The translations under genes and the position numbers were made by a program. The notes below the pieces were generated by a model that was not told where the DNA came from, ran no database searches, and worked only from the letters and a program-made list of their open reading frames with translations. From positions 3,328,001-3,392,000 of the forward strand of contig CAVXRD010000002.1 in the NCBI GenBank assembly GCA_963764165.1: a stretch of 64,000 bases of DNA, given 5' to 3'. Shown here one piece after another: positions 1-11,600 of the stretch (position 1 is its first letter; each line of letters starts with the position of its first letter). The stretch is from an uncultured Verrucomicrobiae bacterium (GTDB lineage Bacteria; Verrucomicrobiota; Verrucomicrobiia; Limisphaerales; Palsa-1400).

Positions 1-104
1 ACCCATACAATTTCGATTTCCTCACCATCAGCAGCCACGCTCACGGGCGCGACTTCAAACAGGGCCTGCTCGGCCATGGGATTCAACGCGCTTGCGCAAT
101 TTAA
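1..104 (+). pseudogene. Truncated 3' part of a YhcG/DUF1016 (PDDEXK nuclease family)-like gene
   Basis: Frame starting at 3 reads PYNFDFLTISSHAHGRDFKQGLLGH, resembling the DUF1016 'DPYxFDFL...ERDLE.GL..H' segment. It then stops (TAA 102-104) well before the expected nuclease C-terminus. Runs off the window edge. Confidence 0.55.
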
Positions 105-125
105 GAAACTAAGGACAATACGGTC

Positions 126-335
126 ATGAAGAATTACACCGCCGTGGTGGAACGCGACCCGGAGACGGGATTTCTTGTGGGCTATGTGCCAGGGTTCCCT
201 GGCGCTCATTCTCAGGCGGAGTCGCTCGACGAACTCCAAGCCAACCTTCAGGAAGTGATTGGCATGCTGCTGGAGGACGGGGAACCGCTCTTGGAAGCCG
301 AATTTGTCGGCACGCAGAGCATCGTTGTGGCCTGA
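126..335 (+). CDS. hicB: Type II TA antitoxin, HicB family (short form)
   Basis: YTAVVERD..G.LVGYVPGFPGAHSQAESLDELQANLQEVI is a HicB N-terminal signature. AAGGA RBS upstream; adjacent to hicA. Confidence 0.9.
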   Translation: MKNYTAVVERDPETGFLVGYVPGFPGAHSQAESLDELQANLQEVIGMLLEDGEPLLEAEFVGTQSIVVA

Positions 336-337
336 CT

Positions 338-562
338 ATGGGCTCCGTGCCGGTTCTCAAGCCCATCGAGGTATGCCGCTTGCTCGAAAGGCTGGGATTC
401 GCCTCTGTGCGCCAGCGCGGTTCGCATATCCAGTATCGCCACGCCGACGGGCGTGGCACAACCGTGCCAATGCACAAAGGCCGTGATATTGCCCCATCCC
501 TGTTACGGAAGATCGCCCGCGACATTGGTTTGACGGTCGAGGAACTTTTGCTGAACCGTTGA
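338..562 (+). CDS. hicA: Type II TA toxin, HicA family mRNA interferase
   Basis: LERLGF..VRQRGSHIQY.H.DGR.TTVP.H.GRDI...LLRKI motif; 2 bp after hicB. Confidence 0.92.
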   Translation: MGSVPVLKPIEVCRLLERLGFASVRQRGSHIQYRHADGRGTTVPMHKGRDIAPSLLRKIARDIGLTVEELLLNR

Positions 563-864
563 TCGCGCCCACTCATACTTTCACCTCCACGGTAACGCGG
601 AGCCGCCACAAAACCATCCTCCAAACGACGCTAGGGTGCCTATCTCCATAGTAGCTTCGCTTCGGATGAGAAAGACTTCGCCGAACCCAAATATTGCCCT
701 GTCCCAATGCCCCGCGTGAAAGCACTCAGCCTACAGACTCAAGCTTCAATAAATTGTAGGCCGGCCCTCCCCCGACGCAGCGTCCAGGGGGATCGCAAAG
801 TCAGCGGCAGATGGAGTCACGTTTCGAACCGTTTGCGAAAAACAAAAAGTGCAAAAAGTGACAC
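458..864 (+). repeat. Repeat unit L1: hicA 3' end + spacer + REP pair + terminus motif
   Basis: Directly repeated, with divergence, at 871-1190 and 2056-2389. Ends ...gcgaaaaacaaaaagtgcaaaaagtgacac. Confidence 0.9.
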
Positions 865-870
865 AGGAAT

Positions 871-1190
871 ACAACCGTGCCAATGCACAAAGGCCGTGAT
901 ATTGCCCCATCGCTGTTGCGGAAGATCGCCCGCGACATTGGTATGACGGTCGAGGAACTTCTGTTGAACCGTTGATCGCGCCCACTCATACTTTTTGCCT
1001 CGACGGCAATGTGGAGCCGTCACAAAACCACCCCCAACACCCGACGGGTGATGGCACGCAGCCTACACGTTCCAGCTTCAACAAATTGTAGGCCGGGTCC
1101 CCCGCCCCGGCGTCCAGCGGAATCGCAGAGTCAGCGACTGACGGATCCACGTGTCGAACATTTGCGAAAAAGAAAAAGTGCAAAAAAGTG
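871..1190 (+). repeat. Repeat unit L2, including a hicA 3' fragment (871-975)
   Basis: acaaccgtgccaatgcacaaaggccgtgatattgcc...aaccgttga is near-identical to 458-562. Ends ...gcgaaaaagaaaaagtgcaaaaaagtg. Confidence 0.9.
1088..1112 (+). repeat. GTAG-type REP-like hairpin (also 756-782 degenerate, and 2295-2319)
   Basis: gtagGCCGGGtcccccg(a/c)CCCGGC, with an inverted partner ending ...agcctac just upstream in each L unit. Confidence 0.65.
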
Positions 1191-1268
1191 GGAACGCGAA
1201 TGGCGCTTACGCAAAGTTGGCCAGAAAGACTTGAAACTTGCATGGGTGGATGCGATTGTTTGCATTGT

Positions 1269-1691
1269 ATGTCAGCGATGACTAAAGATGAGAGCGTCAC
1301 TCTCCGTTTGACAAAACCTGAGAAGGCGGATTTGGAAGCGGCCGCGACTTTGACGGGCCAACCGCCGGGTACTTTGGCGGCTATTTACGTCAAAGAGGGT
1401 GTAAAACGTTCGCGTTTCCCCGTTGTCGAGTTTCGCGACGGCGCTCCGGGCCGGGTGGCTTACGTAACCGGCACGAGGTGGCCGGTCTGGATGGTCGTGG
1501 ATTTGGTCAAAGATCTGGGCGGGAACACGACGAAGGCGGCTCAGCGAATGGACAAACCCGAACCGGTCGTCAAGATGGCACTGGCCTACGCGGAGGCCTA
1601 CTCGGAGGAGATCGCCGCGAGCCTGACACTGCACAAGCACCGGGACTTCGAGGGGCTTAAAGCTGTTTCGCCCAACCTTGAGAAGGTGTGA
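1269..1691 (+). CDS. Putative antitoxin, DUF433-domain with N-terminal DNA-binding segment (start 1269 or 1278)
   Basis: V.FRDG..GR.AYV.GTR..VW.VV...ALAYAEAY.EEI is a DUF433-type motif; 4-bp overlap with the downstream PIN gene. Confidence 0.75.
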   Translation: MSAMTKDESVTLRLTKPEKADLEAAATLTGQPPGTLAAIYVKEGVKRSRFPVVEFRDGAPGRVAYVTGTRWPVWMVVDLVKDLGGNTTKAAQRMDKPEPVVKMALAYAEAYSEEIAASLTLHKHRDFEGLKAVSPNLEKV

Positions 1692-2041
1692 GGCTGCTGC
1701 TGGACGAGCACATCCCTCGCGAAGCAGCCGAGGCGCTCCAAAGAAAGTTTCCGGCATTGGAGGCGGTTTCCATTTACGATACGTCCTGGCGGGGGCTGCC
1801 AGACCCGCCGCTGCTCGAAACGCTTGATCGCGAAGGCTGGATCCTTGTCAGCCGCGATGTGAATACGATCCCGGAATTCGTCAAGGCTCGTTTGGCGGCA
1901 GGTTTCACTCATGGCGGAGTGATTTACGCCGACAGCAAGCGACTCCGCCAATCGGATGTGCGCGGCCTGATTCGGAAGCTCATCGCCTTCGTCGAAAAAC
2001 ACGCAGATGAAGATTGGACCTGTCGCGAGGGCTGGCTTTAG
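1688..2041 (+). CDS. DUF5615 (PIN-like, VapC45-type) toxin
   Basis: MRLLLDEHI...GL.DP.LL...REG.ILVSRD...H.GVI motif; GTGA overlap with the DUF433 gene. Confidence 0.82.
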   Translation: MRLLLDEHIPREAAEALQRKFPALEAVSIYDTSWRGLPDPPLLETLDREGWILVSRDVNTIPEFVKARLAAGFTHGGVIYADSKRLRQSDVRGLIRKLIAFVEKHADEDWTCREGWL

Positions 2042-2055
2042 GTAGGTTCAGGCAG

Positions 2056-2389
2056 GATATTGCCCATCGCTGTTACGGAAGATCGCCCGCGACATTGGTT
2101 TGAAGGTCGAGGAACTTTCGCTGAATCGTTGATCGAGCCCGCTCATTCTTTCACCTCGCCGACAACGCGGAGCCATCACAAAACCACCCGCCAAAAATAA
2201 CGGTAGGGTGAGGCTCAGCCGAACCCAAATATGCCATGCCCCAACGCCTGCCGCGCGAGGGCACTCAGCCTACGGGCTCCAGCCTCAACAAATTGTAGGC
2301 CGGGTCCCCCGACCCGGCGTTCAGGGGAATCACAGAGTCAGCGGCGGATGGAGTCATGTATCGAACCATTTGCAAAAAGCGAGTGACAC
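2056..2389 (+). repeat. Repeat unit L3, including a short degenerate hicA 3' fragment
   Basis: gatattgcccatcgctgttacggaagatcgcccgcgacattgg... plus the same spacer and REP. Ends ...tcgaaccatttgcaaaaagcgagtgacac. Confidence 0.85.
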
Positions 2390-2620
2390 CTGCCCCCCAA
2401 AACAGAGCGCGAGCGAAATAACCACTTGGGGGGCGAATGTTAATGCAGCATTCCATTTGGCACATAAGCCGCTTGAACATCGACACCTCGGGCATCGCAA
2501 TAGTCGCTATCATTCGTCTCATTTTATTACCGAATTAAATCCAGTTTCATTTCACCAACAGCAACCTCCGTCGAGCCGCAGAGCGTAAAGTTTTCCTGAC
2601 ACCAAGTCTGGTTATTTGAT

Positions 2621-3077
2621 TCATCGATCACGCCCTGCGACAAATGCAAAATATCCGATATAATTCGTTCGTTTATCAAAGAAGATTGATAACGATCCGT
2701 TGCCTTCGGACGCCTCAGAAACACCAACAACCTCACATTGATCCGCCGCCGATAATCTTTCCAAAATGTCCGTTGGGCGGGCTCGTACGTTACCGCTTAC
2801 GGTTGCGAAAATCGGTTGCAAGGGTCTGTAACGAATCAATTTCGGCCTGCCTTAGAAAATGTCTTTCGTTCAGTTTCCACTGCTGCAACTGCCAGTGGCC
2901 CATTTTCCCATACATTGCAACAAGTTTTTGAGCCACGTCCTCCTGAGAGGAATTTAGGGGAACGTCATTTAACACGTTTACGACATTTCTCACGCTAGGC
3001 ATGCATCCACCTGCTGTTCCAGACAGCAAGACTACAATCAGAAGTTTTCTTAACGCGGTTCGTATCGTAGCGTACAT
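2621..3077 (-). pseudogene. Low-GC hypothetical exported/lipoprotein-like gene, probably frameshifted (3077-2790, then overlapping frame to 2621); candidate immunity protein
   Basis: ATG 3077 lies 4 bp after the upstream ORF. MYATIRTALRKLLIVVLLSGTAGGC has a signal and weak lipobox. The overlapping frame 2839-2621 reads like a plausible continuation (...GSLSIFFDKRTNYIGYFAF). Confidence 0.4.
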
Positions 3078-3081
3078 AAAT

Positions 3082-3581
3082 CTAGTGCTGCAAAAAGGCT
3101 CCAGCGGCCCCATCCCAAGTACTACCAAATCCCGGTTGCGGATGTCGGGCCCCATTCCAAGTAGACGTGACATCCAAATTCGGGTTTGAAAATAGCAACC
3201 ACTGTGTCGCCCTGGAAATCGTGCTCGTAAACTCACCAAAGAACCAATAACTTGGGCTCAAATTAAGACTCATATTGGCAACATTATTATAGTATCCCAC
3301 TGCCGGCCCCCGTGCCGAGAAATTCTGATACACGCCGATACCGTAATACCCTAAATACCTGGAGCCCTCCAAACCCCTAAGGACGCCCCCACTATGATCC
3401 AGTTGATCGATGGTACTGTCTCCATAAACTATATCAGCGACTTGGGAAGCATATTCTAACCCCGGCGCCGTGTCTCCCAAAAACGCCTCTGCAAATACCT
3501 CCATAATACTGGCACCTACATACGGCGCCGAAACCTGATCGGACAATCCCAGCGCATTTCCGGCGCGGTTATCAAGCGCGA
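3082..3581 (-). pseudogene. 5'-truncated low-GC ORF; candidate orphan polymorphic-toxin C-terminal fragment
   Basis: The frame is open from the terminus junction at 3581/3582 (LALDNRAGNALGLSDQVSAPY...) to the stop at 3082. It has no convincing start/RBS at its 5' end and atypical codon usage. Confidence 0.4.
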
Positions 3582-3925
3582 GTGTCAGTCCTCACCTTTT
3601 GCACTTTTTGCTTTTCTGCTCTTATCCGTTGTCCGGTGGCCCGGGAACCCTAGTCCAAACGCCCGCCGGTGGATGGCTAACCGCTACCGCGAAATCTGCT
3701 GGACCTCGCCCACCGACGGCACCATCTGCAGGACAATGACATCTCGAGGGCATTCGGTGCGGAGGGTCGTGGGCTGCAAGTTTGTGAAGGTGGTCAAATC
3801 GAGCACGACACGGTGTTCCTTTTGGCTCGGCTGGAACAATGCCGGATCCCTGCCGACGGCGGTGACCACAACTTCCTCAGGACTGAGACTGAACGAATGG
3901 GTCTCCCCTTCGGCGAATTTTGTCG
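3582..3925 (-). repeat. Repeat unit R3: cdaR 3' fragment (3925-3684) + spacer + terminus motif
   Basis: Diverged copy of 4730-5386 without the MITE. On the minus strand it ends gcaaaaagtgcaaaaggtgaggactgacac. Confidence 0.92.
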
Positions 3926-3930
3926 ATTCG

Positions 3931-4000
3931 GTGTTAGACCTTCACTTTTTGCACTTTTGTTTTTCGCAAAGATTCGACACATGGCTCCAATTGCCCATTT
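3931..4000 (-). repeat. Terminus motif copy R2
   Basis: Minus strand atgggcaattggagccatgtgtcgaatctttgcgaaaaacaaaagtgcaaaaagtgaaggtctaacac matches the ends of L1-L3. Confidence 0.85.
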
Positions 4001-4050
4001 CCTCGATGGCGCGTTGAATCCAGAAAGCTTTATATGACAGCGCATCCAAT

Positions 4051-4467
4051 TCAATGCAGCAGTTCCACCAGACCCGTTTCATCCGCAAAGCTTTTTGCCA
4101 GCGGTTCATCGAGAGTTGCCAGACTGAATCGATGTTGCCGGGCGAGCGCAACAAGATAGCGGTCGGTGATCTGATTTGCGCCAGCCATCAGTTCCGTTCG
4201 CACGGCGCGGTCGGTGCAGCTCAAGTCGTCGGAAATGAATTCATGGCGCGGGTCACTGATGAATTGGCGGAGAACGCCAAACGCCAGTTCGGGCGTCAAG
4301 CCGTAACCGAGCAGGGGATGCGAGGAGACGCGCGCAAAACCAAGCTGGACAACCGGGCAGGTCGCAAAGGCGGAAACGCCCCTGAACCACGAACGGGCCC
4401 GGGAGTGATGCTCGTGATTTTCCCAAAGCAACGCCATGAGCAAATTGACATCAAGCAATCGGGTCAC
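4051..4467 (-). CDS. vapC: VapC-family PIN ribonuclease toxin
   Basis: LLDVNLLMALL...HEHH..AR.WF...ATCP..QLGF.R...QITD.YLVALA.....LATLD is a mycobacterial-type PIN signature. Confidence 0.9.
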   Translation of the reverse strand: MTRLLDVNLLMALLWENHEHHSRARSWFRGVSAFATCPVVQLGFARVSSHPLLGYGLTPELAFGVLRQFISDPRHEFISDDLSCTDRAVRTELMAGANQITDRYLVALARQHRFSLATLDEPLAKSFADETGLVELLH

Positions 4468-4673
4468 GGGGTCCGGCTTTCAATCTCGTGAACAAGTTGC
4501 GAAGTGATGGTTCGGCCGTCGGCGCGGATGACGGGCAAACCGTCCCCTTCGGTGCCAACGGAAAAATGGTGGCGCGTCATTGAACTGCCGTTTTCTGCGA
4601 TAAACTGCGCGACTCGCGCCTGTTCGTTCGCGGACAATTCTTTGATTCGCTCAATGATTTCAACGGCACTCAT
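4464..4673 (-). CDS. Putative antitoxin of the adjacent VapC
   Basis: 69 aa with a 4-bp overlap with vapC. The C-terminal 'GLPVI....ITS.LV.EI' resembles antitoxin tails found next to this VapC class. Confidence 0.65.
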   Translation of the reverse strand: MSAVEIIERIKELSANEQARVAQFIAENGSSMTRHHFSVGTEGDGLPVIRADGRTITSQLVHEIESRTP

Positions 4674-4729
4674 GGGTTAATTGTCCGGAAAAATTCATTT
4701 TTGGCAAGCGCATTGCCCTTCGCACGCAA

Positions 4730-4800
4730 GTGTCGGCCATTACTTTTTGCACTTTTGCTTTCCTGCTCTTATCCGTCGTCCGGTGACCCGGGAACCCTAG
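4730..4800 (-). repeat. Terminus motif copy R1 with spacer
   Basis: Minus strand ...ggataagagcaggaaagcaaaagtgcaaaaagtaatggccgacac; same as 3582-3653. Confidence 0.85.
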
Positions 4801-5108
4801 TGTAGTGTCTCTTAAATAACTGGAGATTCGTTGCGCCGCCTTTGGCCTGTGGCTAGCAGCCCGCCTGGGGCGGGCAGCGCATCTCTGTTCTGACTCGACG
4901 AAGGAGCATCCCCTCATGGGGCTGTGACTGAGGAGCAACGACGCCACAGGCCAAAGGCAGCGCAACCCGCAGGGCGGCAGGTCTTTTTGACGCAGGCCAC
5001 GTTGCTCGCTCCTCACAGATCCTTTGGGATATGCTCGTCGTTCGCGCCTTGCCTGCGTCAAAAATCCCTTGCCGCGAATCTCCAGCTATTTAAGAGACAC
5101 TACACTAG
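4797..5108. mobile_element. MITE-1 (non-autonomous, about 310 bp) inserted at a CTAG site
   Basis: 34-bp terminal inverted repeat including the flanking CTAG (ctagtgtagtgtctcttaaata(a/g)ctggagattcg, 1 mismatch). The homologous empty site with a single CTAG is at 3650-3653. Confidence 0.92.
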
Positions 5109-5138
5109 CGCAAACGCCCGCCGGTGGATGGCCATCCG

Positions 5139-5525
5139 CTACCGCGAAATCTGCTGGACCTCAACCACCGACGGCACCATTTGCAAGACAATGACATCTC
5201 GAGGGCATTCGGCGCGGAGGCGAAGGGTCGTGGGCTGCAAGTTCGTGAAGGTTGTCAAATCGAGCACGACACGGACTTCTTTTTGGCTCGGCTGGAACAA
5301 CGCCGGATCCCTGCCGACAACAGTGACGACAACTTCCTCGGGACTGAAACTAAACGAGCGAGTCTCGCCTTCGGCGAATTTTGTCGTGATGGGCACGCGA
5401 ATGTAGGCGGGCGTGAGCGAGTTAGACTCGTCGTGGATGCTGTAATGAATCAACATCCAGATCACTGTCGCCAGCGTGATCGAGAACAGCTTCAGCCAAA
5501 AATTGCGGAGAATCAGGTCGCGCAT
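5139..5525 (-). CDS. cdaR: CdaR/YbbR-like membrane-anchored regulator (short, single domain)
   Basis: N-terminal 'NFWLKLFSITLATVIW' TM segment and P..V.VTV.G motif; directly downstream of cdaA. Confidence 0.75.
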   Translation of the reverse strand: MRDLILRNFWLKLFSITLATVIWMLIHYSIHDESNSLTPAYIRVPITTKFAEGETRSFSFSPEEVVVTVVGRDPALFQPSQKEVRVVLDLTTFTNLQPTTLRLRAECPRDVIVLQMVPSVVEVQQISR

Positions 5526-5532
5526 AGCAGCG

Positions 5533-5806
5533 AGTACTGTGACAAAGAAATTTCGACACGCGCGTTGCGCCGATTTTGGCTTGGGGCAAGGCGCGAGGAG
5601 CGAGCATACCCTTCATGGGTCTGTGAGCGACGAGCAACGCGGCCCCAAGCCAAAATCGGCGCAACCCTCCGGGCGGCAGGTCTTTTTGGGCCAGACTTCG
5701 TTGCTCGCTCCGTGCAGATCCATGAAGGATATGCCCGTCGCTCGCGCCTCGTCTGGCCCAAAAATCCCTTGCCGCGCATGTATCGAAATTTCTTTGTCAC
5801 AGTACT
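5533..5806. mobile_element. MITE-2 (about 274 bp) between cdaA and cdaR
   Basis: 24-bp perfect terminal inverted repeat agtactgtgacaaagaaatttcga. Internal architecture is homologous to MITE-1. The right end overlaps the cdaA TAG stop. Confidence 0.85.
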
Positions 5807-6668
5807 AAATTTTCTGCCCGGGAGAGGCGAGGGCGTGATTCTCCTTCGGCGCGGCTTTGTCCCTTGGGCGGAACAGGCGCAAAATTCCGTGCGACTTGCT
5901 TGGTTTCACGAGCACGGAAGTCAGGAAGGCGCGCAATTGCTCCGCCGAGATGCCGCGCTGCAACTGTCCTTTGTATGCGTAGGAAATCGATCCCGTTTCC
6001 TCCGAAACGACCACCACCACGGCGTCTGTTTCTTCGGACAATCCAATCGCGGCCCGGTGCCGCGTGCCAAGCGAGGCGTTCAAATCCTGCCGCTGCGTCA
6101 GGGGGAAAATGCAGGCGGCGAAGGCAATTCGATCCCCTTTCAGAATCACGCCGCCATCGTGGATCGCGTTGTTCGGAAAGAAAATGGCTTCCAGCATTTC
6201 GGGCGTTGCTTCGCAATCGACGGGCAGGCCGGATTCGGTGGCTTCCTGCAAATTGATCGTTTGCTCGATGGCCATAAGGGCGCCGATGCGGACTTCCGCC
6301 AGGCGCTCGGATGTTTGGATGATGACTTCAATGTTCTCGCGCGCTTCATGGCTGGTGGCGAAGAGCGGATGTGTTCCTAGCTCCGCGAGAATGCGGCGCA
6401 GCTCAGGTTGGAAAATAATGAGAATCGCCACCGCCGCAAACGCGACGAAGGAGCGGATGAGCCAGCTCAAAACCTCCAGCTTCAAAAAATAGGCGACGAC
6501 AGTGAGGCTCAGCACGAGCAGGACGAACCCGTAAACCACCGGCGCGCCGCGCGTTCCGCGAATGAACTTCAAGCTGAAGTAAATGCCGACCGAAAGAATG
6601 ATGACCTCAAGCGCCGGCCGCCAGCCGCGCTGAAGTGTCTCAGTCAGGAATGTGATTACTTCCGGCAT
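5805..6668 (-). CDS. cdaA: Diadenylate cyclase CdaA (DacA)
   Basis: Three N-terminal TM helices, IFQPELRR, HDGG and GTRHRAA DAC motifs, VSEETG.IS. Confidence 0.95.
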   Translation of the reverse strand: MPEVITFLTETLQRGWRPALEVIILSVGIYFSLKFIRGTRGAPVVYGFVLLVLSLTVVAYFLKLEVLSWLIRSFVAFAAVAILIIFQPELRRILAELGTHPLFATSHEARENIEVIIQTSERLAEVRIGALMAIEQTINLQEATESGLPVDCEATPEMLEAIFFPNNAIHDGGVILKGDRIAFAACIFPLTQRQDLNASLGTRHRAAIGLSEETDAVVVVVSEETGSISYAYKGQLQRGISAEQLRAFLTSVLVKPSKSHGILRLFRPRDKAAPKENHALASPGQKI

Positions 6669-7506
6669 TTTGTTGTTGTTTCATTAGGGCTTCCGTCATT
6701 CGAACGGCGTGGCGTGTCGCGGCCACATCATGGCAGCGAATGATCGCGGCTCCATGCTGCGCGCCCCAGCAGGCGCAAGCCAGCGAGGGTGAAAGGCGCT
6801 CCTGTACCGTCGCGCCCGACGCGGCACCGACAAACGATTTGCGGGAAGCCCCTACCAGCAACGGACGCCCCATCATTGTAAACCGCGCCAGCCCGGCAAG
6901 CAATTGCAAATTGTCTTCCAGCCGCTTTCCAAATCCCAGGCCCGCGTCCAAAATAGTCTGCTCTGCATTGACACCGCACTCGCGCAAACGTTCTAAACGA
7001 TCTTCAAAAAAATCCTGCACCTCGGCAAGAACATCTTTGTAAACAGGATTTTTTTGCATGTCGGCGGGGGTGCCCTGCATGTGAACAATCACGTAACCCG
7101 CGCCGCCCTCGGCGGCCACACGCCACATTTCGGAATCGTCGCGATTGGCCGCGATGTCATTGACAATCGAGGCGCCCATTTGCAACGCTTTCCGCGCCAC
7201 CGCCGGTTTGACGGTGTCAATCGAGATGGGAATTTTCACCGTGCCAGCCAGGGCTTCGATTACAGGGATCACCCGCCGCAATTCCTCCTCTTCGCTGACC
7301 GGCGACGCGCCCGGCCGCGACGATTCGCCGCCGATGTCAATCATATCAGCGCCCTCTTCGACCAGGCGCAGGGCTTGCGCCACGGGGTCCCGCCCGCTTT
7401 CGCTGCGAGCACCGGCGTAAAAGGAATCCGGGGTCGCGTTAACCACGCCCATCACGAGGGACGGGCGTGGAAACGTGAAAACAAATTGGCGCGCGCGCAA
7501 AAGCAT
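6640..7506 (-). CDS. folP: Dihydropteroate synthase
   Basis: MGVVNATPDSF, DIGGESSRPG, SIDT.K, GFGK, SRKS, IRCHDV motifs. Confidence 0.96.
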   Translation of the reverse strand: MLLRARQFVFTFPRPSLVMGVVNATPDSFYAGARSESGRDPVAQALRLVEEGADMIDIGGESSRPGASPVSEEEELRRVIPVIEALAGTVKIPISIDTVKPAVARKALQMGASIVNDIAANRDDSEMWRVAAEGGAGYVIVHMQGTPADMQKNPVYKDVLAEVQDFFEDRLERLRECGVNAEQTILDAGLGFGKRLEDNLQLLAGLARFTMMGRPLLVGASRKSFVGAASGATVQERLSPSLACACWGAQHGAAIIRCHDVAATRHAVRMTEALMKQQQNAGSNHIPD

Positions 7507-7533
7507 TGGTTCTCCCACCCTTAGCGAATTTCG

Positions 7534-7637
7534 GTAGGGCGAGGCTCCCGCCGAGCCATTCCCATTATTCTCATCAATCCCATCATCATGCGAAAAATAG
7601 GAATAATGGGACGGCTCGGCAGGAGCCTCGCCCTGCC
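7534..7637. repeat. Inverted REP pair (gtagggcgaggctcc.gccgagcc family)
   Basis: 7534-7557 and its inverted copy 7613-7637, with inner stem cccattattc/gaataatggg. Same family at 8487-8544 and 47349-47416. Confidence 0.85.
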
Positions 7638-7678
7638 GGCCCTCACCTGCACGGACGCGCCAGTTCGAGCAGGCGCGG

Positions 7679-8305
7679 TTACTTGGCCGCGGAGAAATTC
7701 TTGGCCACTTCGGACCAATTGACCGCGCCCCATATCGCTTTCAGATAATCCGCGCGGCGGTTCTGATATTTCAAGTAATAAGCGTGCTCCCAGACGTCGA
7801 TGCCGAATATCGGCGTGCCTTCGCAGCCAGCGATGGCTTTGCCCATGATTGGACTGTCCTGGTTGGCGGTGGAGCAGACTTCGAGCTTCCCGCCGTTGAC
7901 GACGAGCCAGGCCCAGCCGCTGCCGAAACGGCTGACGCCGGCGGCTTCGATTTTTTCTTTGAAGCCGTCGAAGCTGCCGAATGCCGCATTAATTGCGTCG
8001 GCGAGCGGGCCGGTCGGAGCGCCCCCGGCTTTCGGGCCGAGGAGCTTCCAGAAGAACGAGTGATTGGCGTGGCCGCCGCCGTTATTGCGCACCGCACCGC
8101 GAATATCAGCGGGAACCGCATCGAGATTGCTGATGAGTTGTTCCACCGTTTTGGATTCGAGCTCGGGCTTGCCCGCGATGGCCTTGTTGACGTTGGTCAC
8201 ATAAGCGGCGTGATGCTTGTCGTGATGAATCTCCATCGTCTTCGCGTCGATGTTCGGTTCCAGGGCGTCGTTCGGATAGGGGAGCGGTGGTAATTCGTAA
8301 GCCAT
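7679..8305 (-). CDS. sodA: Superoxide dismutase (Mn/Fe family, Mn-like)
   Basis: [31 protein letters not shown]. Confidence 0.96.
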
Positions 8306-8486
8306 AGTATGTCTCTCTTTCCAATTTCCAATTTATATTGTGCAACTGTTTGTGTTCTAAACCCGTTTGTAAAAAATGACAACCAATTGAGTAAACTACA
8401 ACCGTACACTAACAAAGGCCGCCCAAAAGACAAGGGACGGAATTTTGGGGGGCGCAAATCAATAGTGTGAACCGTTCGGTTTGCGC

Positions 8487-8544
8487 GGCTCGGCAGGAGC
8501 CTCGCCCTACCGAGCGCTTGGTAGGGCGAGGCTCCTGCCGAGCC
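8487..8544. repeat. Head-to-head REP pair, same family as 7534
   Basis: ggctcggcaggagcctcgccctacc-gagcgctt-ggtagggcgaggctcctgccgagcc. Confidence 0.88.
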
Positions 8545-8552
8545 GGGGCTCC

Positions 8553-8587
8553 AAAAAGCAAAAGGAGCCGGGATTGCTCCCGGCTCC
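8553..8587 (-). terminator. Rho-independent terminator of the Ig/LamG gene
   Basis: Minus strand GGAGCCGGGA-gcaa-TCCCGGCTCC followed by TTTTGCTTTTT, 26 bp after the stop at 8614. Confidence 0.85.
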
Positions 8588-8613
8588 ATTGCGATTGCGG
8601 CCTTGGCTCCTGC

Positions 8614-11600
8614 CTACGGCAGGACCAGGCGATAAAATGCCGTCGACGTCCCCGGGGTCAGGATGACCTCGTTGTTGGAGTTAACAATCTGGGACGGTGT
8701 GATCACGTTTTGCCACGGGCCGGTCAGATTGGTGGTTTCTTGAAGTCCGAACAGCGTCGAGACTGAAATCGGCCATGTAATGACCGTGCTCCCTGCCGCT
8801 CCGGCCTTCAAAGTCAGAACGGGAGGTGTGGTGTAGGAAAACACGAAGTTCGAGACGGTCTGATTGGCACTCGCACCGCCAGTGCCGCCGGTGAACCCAA
8901 TGTAGGCGCTGCTGCCACCGACGAGCGCAGGCAGATTGGTCAGAGCCAGGGAAGTGGTGAAGTTGCTGCCAGTGGCTGTATCCACCAAGGCGACGTTCAT
9001 TGTGTTTTGCATGTAATAGAGCTGAACGTAGATGGGATCGCCGGAAACGATGCTGACCGGCGCTGTGTTAATGGACGGAGCCGTCAACGTTCCGCCGTCC
9101 GGAGCGGTTCCATCGACGCCCATTTGAATCCCAACATTGCCCGCGCCATACGGATAGATGTTCATCTCAAAGGCAGCGCTGGGAGCGATGCCGGTGTAGC
9201 CCAAATCTCCTCCGCCAGCACCGACCGCCGTCGGGCCCACCGGGGAATTCTGCATGCAGAACGTGATGCCATCAGCCAGGGTGCCGCCGCCATAATTGGT
9301 GGCGGTGTAGGTGTAGGAGGCGAAAAACCCGCCGATGTATTGGACTGTGTTGAAGAACGCGCTGGACGCCTCGCTGTTGTTGCCGTCGGTCAGCGTGAGC
9401 ACGTTGTCACTGATGTAAGGCTGGATGTTGGCGCCGTCGTTGAGGGACCAGTTATCGCCGTTCGTATAGAAGGAGATGACGGGCGGCGGATTGGTCAGGC
9501 CGACCACGGTCGCGAGGGAGCTGTTGGTCGTGCCGTATGAATTGTGAATGGCGACCGAATAAGTGTTCGTTCCAGCGAGCGCGTCAAACGTGTAACTGGA
9601 GTTTGTCGCATTCGCAATGGCGCCGCTTGCGCCGCTGGACCATTGGTAGGTGAACGGCGGTGTCCCGGCAGCAGTGACTGACAGCGTGACCGGCACTCCG
9701 GCAGGAACCTCGGTCAGCGGGATGACATCCGTCTCCGTCAGCGGCAAAAGGTTCAATCCAGCGTAAAGCCCCGACACCTGGCTGGGAGTCAGCGCGTTGG
9801 TGAGGATGGCCACTTCAGCGATATTGCCCGCAAAATTGCGCTGATTCGCGTAATCAGGAGCGCCGGCGATCCAGACATCGTCGCCGCTGCCGCCGGGATT
9901 GCCGGGTTCAATCTGGCCGGTTTGCTGTCCGTCGGCGTAGACATACTGGTTCGTGCCGTCATAGACACCAACGATTTGATGCCAACTGCCGTCACCGACA
10001 TTAACGGTGCCGACAGCGTCAGGCCCGGCATCCGCAAATCGCGGGGGATTGCCCACAACCGAAAGACGGTAGCTCTGGTCGGAATGACCGACGACCGTTC
10101 CGAAATGACCGCCCGCCTCCCCCACCGAAGGCGTCTCGGATCCAGGCGATAACGGTGATGGGTCCAGTGATATTCAGATTGCCCACCGGAATGTCCACAT
10201 ATCCACTGGAGCCATCGAAGCCTGCGGAGTAATTCGTCGCGCCGATGCTGGCGGCGGTGGCGGGAATGCCAGGCTGGCCCAGCGTGTAACCGCCTTGATA
10301 GGTGCCGTCGTGTCCGCCCGCATAGTCGAAGGCTGTGTTGCCACTGGTTTCGTTCAGCGGCCAATACGCCACTGGCTTGTAGGCCAGGAGCGCCGATTGA
10401 TACGATGAAGGCGTGATGAGGTTCAGGGTCACCGGGCTGCTGGTGGCCGTGCCGACGAAGTTGGAGACAATCACAGAAATAGTGACGTTCGATGTGTTCA
10501 AATTGGCATAGGTCGCGTTGGTCGCTCCGGGAATAGCCGTGGCCGGGCTTTGCGGCAAACCGCTGTACCATTGATAGCTGAAGGGCGGCGCGCTCGAACC
10601 GTCAATGACGACGGAGAACAGAGTGGTCTCGTTGGCAAACGCGTTGACCGGTGAAACGGGGGGCGTCTGGGAATCGATGATCGGCGCGCTGGGTGTGCCG
10701 GAGTTGATCGTCAGAGTCGCCGGTGTGCTGATCGCGCCGCCAAAGGCGTTGGTGGCTTCAAATTCGTATTCAGTGCCGTCATTGATGCTCAAATTGCTGA
10801 TCGTCAGAGTTGTCGTGCTGGAGCCGGAAATAACGGATCCGTTGCCATCGACGCCGTCGGTTAGCGGATAAAACGCGCCGTTGCTCTGCACGAGCCAGAT
10901 ATTGGTCAGTGGCGCCGTGCCGCTCACTTCGGCGGAGAACGTCGCCGTTTGGCCAGGATACCAAGTCTGGTTCGCGGGCAGCGGATTTTGCGTAATGACC
11001 GGTGGAACTCCGCCCGCCGTGGCGCTGACGGCCATGATGAAAGTGGTCGAGTTGCCCGCGGGGAGGGACACGTTTTTGATGATGATATTGGTCACTGGGC
11101 TGGTCGTGTCGCTCAGCGTAAAGTATGTCTCAAACAGGTAAGGCAGCCCTTGGTTGCCGATCGTATTGAAGGACCGGTCGCTCATATTGACGCGGCCATT
11201 GGCTTCCCAAGCGATGGCACCGGGAACGGATTGCTCAAACCAATCGTAGCCGTAAAAAAGGTTGGTTTCATTTTTTCCATCCGCGTGTTGCAGGATGCAA
11301 ATGTTGGTCATTTTGTTGCCCGCGCCGATGTCGCCGCCAGCCGTCAGGAACGCAAAAGCGGAATACGGAGTCGGCGAAGCCGGAGTGATGTTGGCTGTCA
11401 AATGATTGGTGTCGATCAGAATGGCGTTGTTGTTGGAGTAATTGCCCATCTGATATTGGTGGGTCGGCTGGCTGTAGCTGCTGAAGATGGAACCGGAGGG
11501 AGGCAATCCATAACCGCTGTTGTATGGATAATAGCCTTGCTCAAACCAGGTGTTGCCGACGCCCGAGGAGCTGAGATTGGTGCCATTGTCCATGGTGGCG

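Follow-up and report, generated by a model that had tools for sequence, protein, structure and literature searches.

Converging arrays of orphan TIRYT ends in a Verrucomicrobiae genome and a candidate rule for their joints

We analysed a stretch of 64,000 nt from the genome of an uncultured Verrucomicrobiae bacterium (assembly GCA_963764165.1, contig CAVXRD010000002.1, positions 3,328,001 to 3,392,000), called the window below, in which six related sites form two converging arrays. These six sites are shown here to be orphan ends of a TIRYT element, and the motif they share is the terminal inverted repeat (TIR) of an element of about 1 kb that codes for a 316-aa HUH (Y1) tyrosine transposase. 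Comparison of the sequences makes it rather probable that the array was built by one-ended HUH strand transfer at a site that is regenerated at each step. The element class is known, while the behaviour of its joints, with a break 5 nt beyond the repeat and a partner starting with YG (Y, pyrimidine), is undescribed and testable.

The end repeat and its element

All six sites are directed towards the centre of the array, with plus-strand ends at 864, ~1197 and 2389 and minus-strand ends at 4730, 3931 and 3582, so our re-scan of the window bears out the converging polarity, three sites per strand, described in a first-pass annotation. The motif itself was confirmed in part. Its 16-mer is present in four of the six sites (4 matches at no more than 2 mismatches in the window vs 0.07 expected; at least 4 in 0 of 100 shuffles), but the other two are degenerate: the site near 1190 has an extra A (a one-base insertion) and lacks ACAC, and little of the motif is left at 2389. 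Codons of the transposase C-terminus are retained at four of the six sites, and the other two are short solo ends. The end folds at -1.9/-1.1 kcal/mol, without a stable hairpin or a GTAG foot.

The same annotation regarded the motif as undescribed, which did not hold, as it is the TIR of an element class named, according to the available parts of both papers, in PMC3733652, where TIRtrons/TIRYTs are defined, and in PMC6006769, where they are equated with subclass 2.1. The 316-aa Y1_Tnp gene on contig C4 is flanked on either side by this repeat in inverted orientation, and three tandem copies of the gene are present there with foreign cargo between them. The statement that a cognate transposase is missing is thus right for the array, but the Y1 transposase is encoded elsewhere in the genome, on C4. 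The protein matches Pfam Y1_Tnp with 37–53 bits (cut-off 23) and NCBIfam REP_Tyr_transpos with 39 bits, below the cut-off of 80, and a Foldseek search with the transposase model gave Escherichia coli TnpA_REP (4ER8) as the best match. In this model, residues 238–313 form a confidently modelled C-terminal domain of five helices, which is not named by the matches that Foldseek listed; Bac_DnaA_C, HTH_23 and HTH_28 gave no Pfam match at E<=1 in 4 transposase proteins. The element probably belongs to TnpA_Y1 subclass 2.1.

The transposase copies of this genome are damaged: one has Tyr in place of the first His of HUH, one is frameshifted and one is internally deleted. Relatives of the transposase occur in 25 out of 30 further genomes of the family, the HUH motif is intact in those where it was read, and both ends were seen by eye beside the transposase gene in 18 of 28 loci of relatives. 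The TIR reads GGTGTCAG or a one-mismatch variant in the lineage of the window, and GGGGTCAG in sister lineages, whose transposases are homologues at 43–60% identity.

Genome-wide, the 16-mer has 31 matches at no more than 2 mismatches, mostly with the same bases downstream, and a profile scan for ends also gave 31 matches, vs 2 in the shuffled genome. When the 16-mer, profile and element searches were pooled by hand, 41 ends at 17 loci were obtained, so the motif is not confined to one locus, an outcome that the annotation had considered. Internally deleted two-ended derivatives also exist (C2:2346385-2346557; C3 near 182 kb). In 33 of the 41 ends, GC content is lower in the flank outside the end than inside. 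Solo repeats are found in each of 4 congeners (3–41 matches; reversed control 0). A pattern scan of genome contigs gave 79 loci, mostly in Verrucomicrobiota records, and the set of relatives used below contains 52 of these 79 loci (5 overlaps and 22 loci from other phyla, which are likely chance matches, were dropped) and 10 more loci. Two observations concern the surroundings of ends: close to ends at two loci of this genome (C2:2573046 and C5:51298) there is an imperfect palindrome of 86 nt that resembles attC, and at locus L021 a complete element separates two copies of a truncated integron-integrase-like gene, of which the second is attached to the element at its right tip.

Break position and re-copy units

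The break lies 5 nt beyond GACAC. Homology among the copies was believed to stop at ACAC; instead, conservation extends 5–6 nt past GACAC, and both traceable joints of the window are at +5/+6. Counting one end per locus and omitting ends with a second motif (described in the last section), G occupies position +3 in 50 of 53 loci, a pyrimidine occupies +6 in 47 of 53, and YG is found at +6/+7 in 28 of 53 loci, compared with 1–9 of 53 at nine other offsets. Perfect re-copies of the upstream sequence of the same end (3–40 nt) then follow in 26 of 110 ends. Their 3' limit is best fitted by +5/+6, with variable starts, and an equal score was reached at 2 of 321 control positions.

In total, 233 ends were examined and a partner could be traced for 24, of which 6 self or same-site matches were dropped and 18 kept. 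Twelve of these 18 non-self joints are exactly at +5, and the native flank of the partner matches only 0–3 of the 5 tip bases. The native start of the partner is a pyrimidine in all 12 and YG in 9 of 12 (background 0.164), a bias with p about 1e-5 if the joints are independent. Of the twelve, relative G030 contributed nine, G024 one and the window two; in the window, end 1 is joined to hicA and the tip of end 3931 is joined directly to CG inside a cdaR-like gene. Regarding the tips, five adjacent ends at L243:2778-4204 that are 91–99.6% alike carry four different tip pentamers and are thus hypervariable at this point. Pairing of the tip with the TIR by a hairpin or guide was considered and dropped, as lineages with different inner TIRs keep the same tips.

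Re-copies range from 3 bp to 1.5 kb, have their 3' end fixed but differ in their 5' start, and include fragments of hicA and of the cdaR-like gene. An arm of the array reads as a series of units, each made of variable start, cargo or host fragment, truncated tail and end, and each added at the previous tip. For example, the segment 3926–5386, which the annotation had predicted as a unit, runs exactly from a variable start to a fixed tip and has a related copy at a second locus. Units of the same kind were found elsewhere in the genome (C1 315–316 kb, C2 2344 kb and C5) and in relatives (L070, L041 with 99.7%, L104 and L017). In G030 there is a young array of five ends in the same direction, four of them joined to element pieces that were cut at different points and are 97–99.6% alike, followed by cargo of 50% GC with a DUF6572 gene and by a converging end, which is the layout of the window. 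At a further locus of G030, converging ends enclose an Rhs fragment.

The second locus is C2:1043275-1044473, where the module of cdaR-like fragment, end, vapBC and end recurs between two genes which, from their sequences, we take to be polX and recA. There, the cdaR-like fragment is longer than in the window and has a different 5' start, and a later insertion of a MITE (a miniature transposable element with inverted repeats) is missing. Between the vapBC copies of the window and of C2:1043393-1044015 there are 9 differences in 623 nt. The polX-recA interval is ~4.1 kb here vs ~0.65 kb in congener G027, while congener G029 has an end of its own, placed 7 bp after the polX stop, and other cargo. 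In G007 (L195:161-406), a 3' fragment of polX is duplicated at a distance of ~1.1 kb downstream; a DAHP-synthase-like gene separates the two, and no end of this type is present. Empty sites were searched at the cdaA loci of 20 of 29 relatives, and neither toxin-antitoxin (TA) genes nor an end of this type were found at them. However, these relatives are distant (cdaR-like proteins 32–57% identical in amino acids) and none is syntenic with the left flank of the window, so the comparison is no proof of an empty site.

Proposed mechanism, alternatives and related systems

In the proposed mechanism, the HUH transposase would bind the TIR, cut one strand 5 nt outside GACAC, cut also at YG dinucleotides elsewhere with relaxed specificity, and join the two cuts. 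A second cut made upstream in the same molecule would yield either a circle or a tandem re-copy, whose 3' end is fixed and whose 5' start varies; such products would account for the stutters of 3–60 nt, the hicA and cdaR-like fragments and the 1.46-kb module. If the second cut is in foreign DNA, a fragment such as the Rhs tail would be captured. As each joint again reads tip-YG, the site would be regenerated and units would accumulate; a single specificity, cutting before YG, could then serve both tip and partner, and the product would again be a substrate. Two strand options are conceivable: a 3'-OH of the tip transferred onto 5'-YG, or a 3'-OH of CR (R, purine) onto the 5' end of the tip, as in IS91-type transfer. 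Some circles may have been integrated by homologous recombination, and the array in the window is old and probably no longer growing from the genome's own enzyme. The annotation had proposed a polar site where DNA is repeatedly appended in trans; polarity, joints at a fixed position and an enzyme encoded elsewhere agree with it, but the break is 5 nt beyond ACAC.

Several points weigh against one-ended transfer. Identity between the vapBC copies of the window and of the second locus is 98.6%, compared with 83–87% for the flanks, so selection or later conversion is needed, and no TIR is present at the 5' side of the third hicA fragment or of the second-locus module, so these two joints need another event. 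The 12 clean joints are not independent, as relative G030 alone supplies 9 of them, and a direct fit to +5 fails for 6 of the 18 traceable joints. Among the five intact window ends, YG follows only two, although a pyrimidine follows all five. The tip pentamer varies between adjacent copies that are 97–99% identical, for which the model offers no explanation. The only full-length transposase ORF (open reading frame) of this genome has Tyr for the first HUH His, no close strain represents the empty window locus, and the GC contrast of flanks is weak in relatives (46 of 75). The support comes from sequence comparison, and the circles are hypothetical.

The main competitor, which we consider unlikely, is a passive scar: two-ended TIRtrons would have inserted repeatedly in a tolerant intergenic hotspot and then decayed, with duplications from host recombination or slippage and with TA genes gathered since they are hard to lose. 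The internally deleted two-ended derivatives, the unrelated MITEs in the same interval, the 83–95% identity of the window copies, the absence of TA enrichment in relatives and the polX duplicate of G007 without a nearby TIR of this type all suit such a history. However, neither a fixed break at +5 nor the YG start, the joints of low microhomology or the nested and nearly identical array of G030 would be expected from it. Far less probable, and close to dismissal, is an assembly artefact: no sequencing run was found for comparison, but the repeats are 83–95% identical with indels, and the same layouts occur in other genomes.

A dedicated system resembling an integron, with selective loading of TA and toxin cassettes, was also considered, and appears improbable. 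The annotation had described the cargo as rich in TA and toxin genes, and this is true for this genome, where a TA gene lies within 2.5 kb of 7 of 17 end loci, compared with a random mean of 0.87 (0 of 10,000 shuffles reached this) and 0 of 21 for integrase genes as a control; the count is based on 55 TA matches in five Pfam families, and both the window and the second vapBC copy are part of it. Rhs fragments between converging ends, in the window and in G030, point in the same direction. In relatives, however, profiles made from this genome's own TA genes gave a match in only 1 of 81 outward flanks and 2 of 43 inward flanks, vs 2 in a 188-kb control, and a general TA enrichment at ends was therefore rejected. 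Only 1 PIN was found among 137 flanking ORFs, a count biased against TA genes because only the two longest ORFs per end were taken. The cargo is also broken mid-gene, includes housekeeping fragments and transposase pieces, and has no site of its own. We think that TA genes probably persist in arrays rather than being chosen by the enzyme. A further TA cluster, outside the Pfam-based count, surrounds an internally deleted two-ended element at C3:181000-182800 (L008) of this genome and contains homologues of the antitoxin/DUF5615 pair of the window, a hicB-like gene and a broken hicA-like gene.

Integron cassette arrays grow by polar accretion at a regenerated site, a feature that the array shares with them, together with TA-rich content in this genome. 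Differently from integrons, there is no tyrosine recombinase beside the array, no attC was found and the cargo is broken mid-gene. Phage_integrase has no match within 50 kb of window positions 1–6000, and a crude core-plus-fold scan, not a covariance-model search, gave no attC in these positions, in agreement with the annotation. IS91/ISCR elements and Helitrons capture DNA by one-ended rolling-circle transposition with one fixed and one variable end. The units here likewise have one fixed and one variable end and take up fragments of adjacent host genes, but the transposase family is different (Y1_Tnp), two symmetric inverted ends both act, whereas IS91/ISCR elements lack terminal inverted repeats, and units are added at existing ends.

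The closest systems are TIRtrons and REPtrons. From the available parts of PMC3733652 and PMC6006769, TIRtrons/TIRYTs, like the element here, combine a RAYT-like HUH/Y1 gene with a long C-terminal extension and inverted repeats instead of the hairpins of REP (repetitive extragenic palindromic) sequences, and their solo repeats are dispersed singly and in clusters; their repeat contains GGGGWSAS, compared with the terminal sequences of the lineages above. In those parts, neither a cut site nor a mechanism is given, and a 5-nt tip, a YG rule and cargo capture are not mentioned. TnpA_REP of E. coli, as far as PMC3333891 is available, cuts at a distance at relaxed C|T sites, transfers strands, and was modelled to amplify tandem units in a rolling-circle-like manner, and other RAYTs cut CT or CA in the corresponding part of PMC8266576. 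The REPtrons with TnpA_REP of E. coli, and group 3 RAYTs, share with our element the fold and, going by these same portions, distant and relaxed dinucleotide cutting, strand transfer, and the modelled tandem amplification and sequestering of neighbouring genes. The end here differs from theirs in having no stable hairpin (-1.9 kcal/mol) or GTAG foot, and in an inferred site N|YG (or CR|) where theirs is C|T or C|A, with units that reach kilobases. The open literature yielded nothing on a TIRYT mechanism or cargo capture, although supplements of PMC3733652 and PMC6006769 may list this lineage; literature searches found nothing on the +5/YG rule or on transduction of host fragments to a second locus, and the accessible part of PMC5581495 adds nothing on ends.

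TIRYTs are a large group of transposases for which the naming works, in the parts available, give neither substrate nor reaction. The joints yield an exact prediction, namely a cut 5 nt outside GACAC and a partner starting with YG. If it holds, orphan TIRYT ends at joints of accessory genes would be explained, and bacteria would have an added route to acquire toxin and immunity fragments. It is conceivable, and we put it forward tentatively, that TIRtrons are a widespread unrecognised platform for gene capture, whose ends act as self-regenerating HUH acceptors for DNA cut before YG. One small transposase would then assemble cassette-like arrays in which TA modules, tails of polymorphic toxins, immunity genes and host fragments are combined, with neither an integrase nor a site in the cargo.

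Genes and other features of the window

On the plus strand, the array begins with an intact TA pair (126–562; hicB-like 126–335, hicA 338–562), the source of the duplicated hicA 3' fragments. End 1 (739–869) consists of a tail with a GTAG-led hairpin, transposase C-terminal codons (WSHVSNRLRKTKSAKSD) and a TIR with an internal deletion, in which GACAC finishes at 864 and the tip is 865–869. At this tip starts the re-copy unit 870–1197, whose hicA 3' fragment (871–975) is 95% identical to the resident gene and which is closed by end 2, a tail with a degenerate end. Cargo follows at 1278–2041, with an antitoxin-like ORF (1278–1691) and a DUF5615/PIN-like toxin gene (1688–2041). The third hicA 3' fragment, 95% identical to the resident and 91% to copy 2, has a 5' joint without a TIR and leads into end 3 (all within 2056–2394), which has a tail, a transposase remnant and a deleted TIR with GACAC finishing at 2389 and the tip at 2390–2394. 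GTAG-led REP-like hairpins are located in the tails of all three plus ends (754–790, 1086–1112 and 2293–2320), with further copies at C2:3327802, C1:315066 and C2:941096.

In place of the end 2 tip, a second recurrent motif of 12 nt is found (1198–1209, plus strand). Several TIRYT ends from different lineages, relatives among them, likewise carry it instead of their usual tip, and it also occurs alone, so that it is possibly the end of another element; other occurrences are C1:810803, C3:182783 and C4:539332, and L018, L020, L022, L029, L069, L115, L118 and L124.

The centre between the converging tips (2395–3576, minus strand) is 1.18 kb of cargo with 48% GC vs 57%, and it begins at the tip of end 3582 with a toxin tail (3082–3576, minus), i.e. 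the 5'-truncated C-terminal domain of a polymorphic toxin of the Rhs/filamentous-haemagglutinin type with a DHSGG motif. A word-based search for homologues of this central ORF among longer proteins found none, and an Atlas search gave only scores below 0.9. A full HMMER search gave 22 matches, and the relatives are C-termini of Rhs and haemagglutinin-repeat proteins, with domains of these types in 7 of 12 homologues scanned, so the toxin-like cargo suspected by the annotation was confirmed. Behind it, a small lipoprotein-like ORF without a family match (2790–3077, minus) may be the immunity gene, judging from its position alone.

On the minus strand, the re-copy unit 3577–3925 has a cdaR-like 3' fragment, a spacer and an intact TIR (GACAC finishing at 3582, tip 3581–3577); the fragment starts at 3925, which corresponds to window position 5386 in the resident gene, and is 90% identical to that gene. 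The end at 3926–4000 has a transposase C-terminal remnant (MGNWSHVSNL) and a TIR with AACAC finishing at 3931 and the tip at 3930–3926, and a VapB-like ORF (4464–4673) and a PIN toxin gene (4051–4467) lie at 4051–4673. A short solo end (4725–4796; GACAC finishing at 4730, tip 4729–4725) is grafted behind the resident cdaR-like gene (5139–5525), which lies 3' of a diadenylate cyclase gene (5805–6668). Neither Pfam nor NCBIfam gave a match for the VapB-like (69 aa) and cdaR-like (128 aa) ORFs, so these names rest on gene position. As for the TA labels of the annotation, HicB-like/HicA, DUF5615 and PIN were recovered, but DUF433 of the antitoxin reached only E=0.11.

The hicA fragments are 91–95% alike, their tails 83–84% and the three cdaR-like fragments 83–90%. 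As described by the annotation, both sets are real copies, and at 83–95% identity they are old and not duplicated by assembly.

Between the solo end and the resident gene, an unrelated multi-copy MITE with 34-bp inverted repeats (4797–5108) was inserted later: both paralogous fragments have the empty site, and 98% copies are at C2:2138476 and C2:2836286. A second MITE-like element (5533–5806) has a 94% copy at C2:2844793, and both have internal palindromes. An Rfam scan of window 1–9000 gave nothing above the gathering score, and Tandem Repeats Finder gave only three trivial rows. Palindromic repeats of the GTAG type at 7532–7638 and 8475–8555, which draw spurious microRNA matches below the gathering score, adjoin a superoxide-dismutase-like gene.

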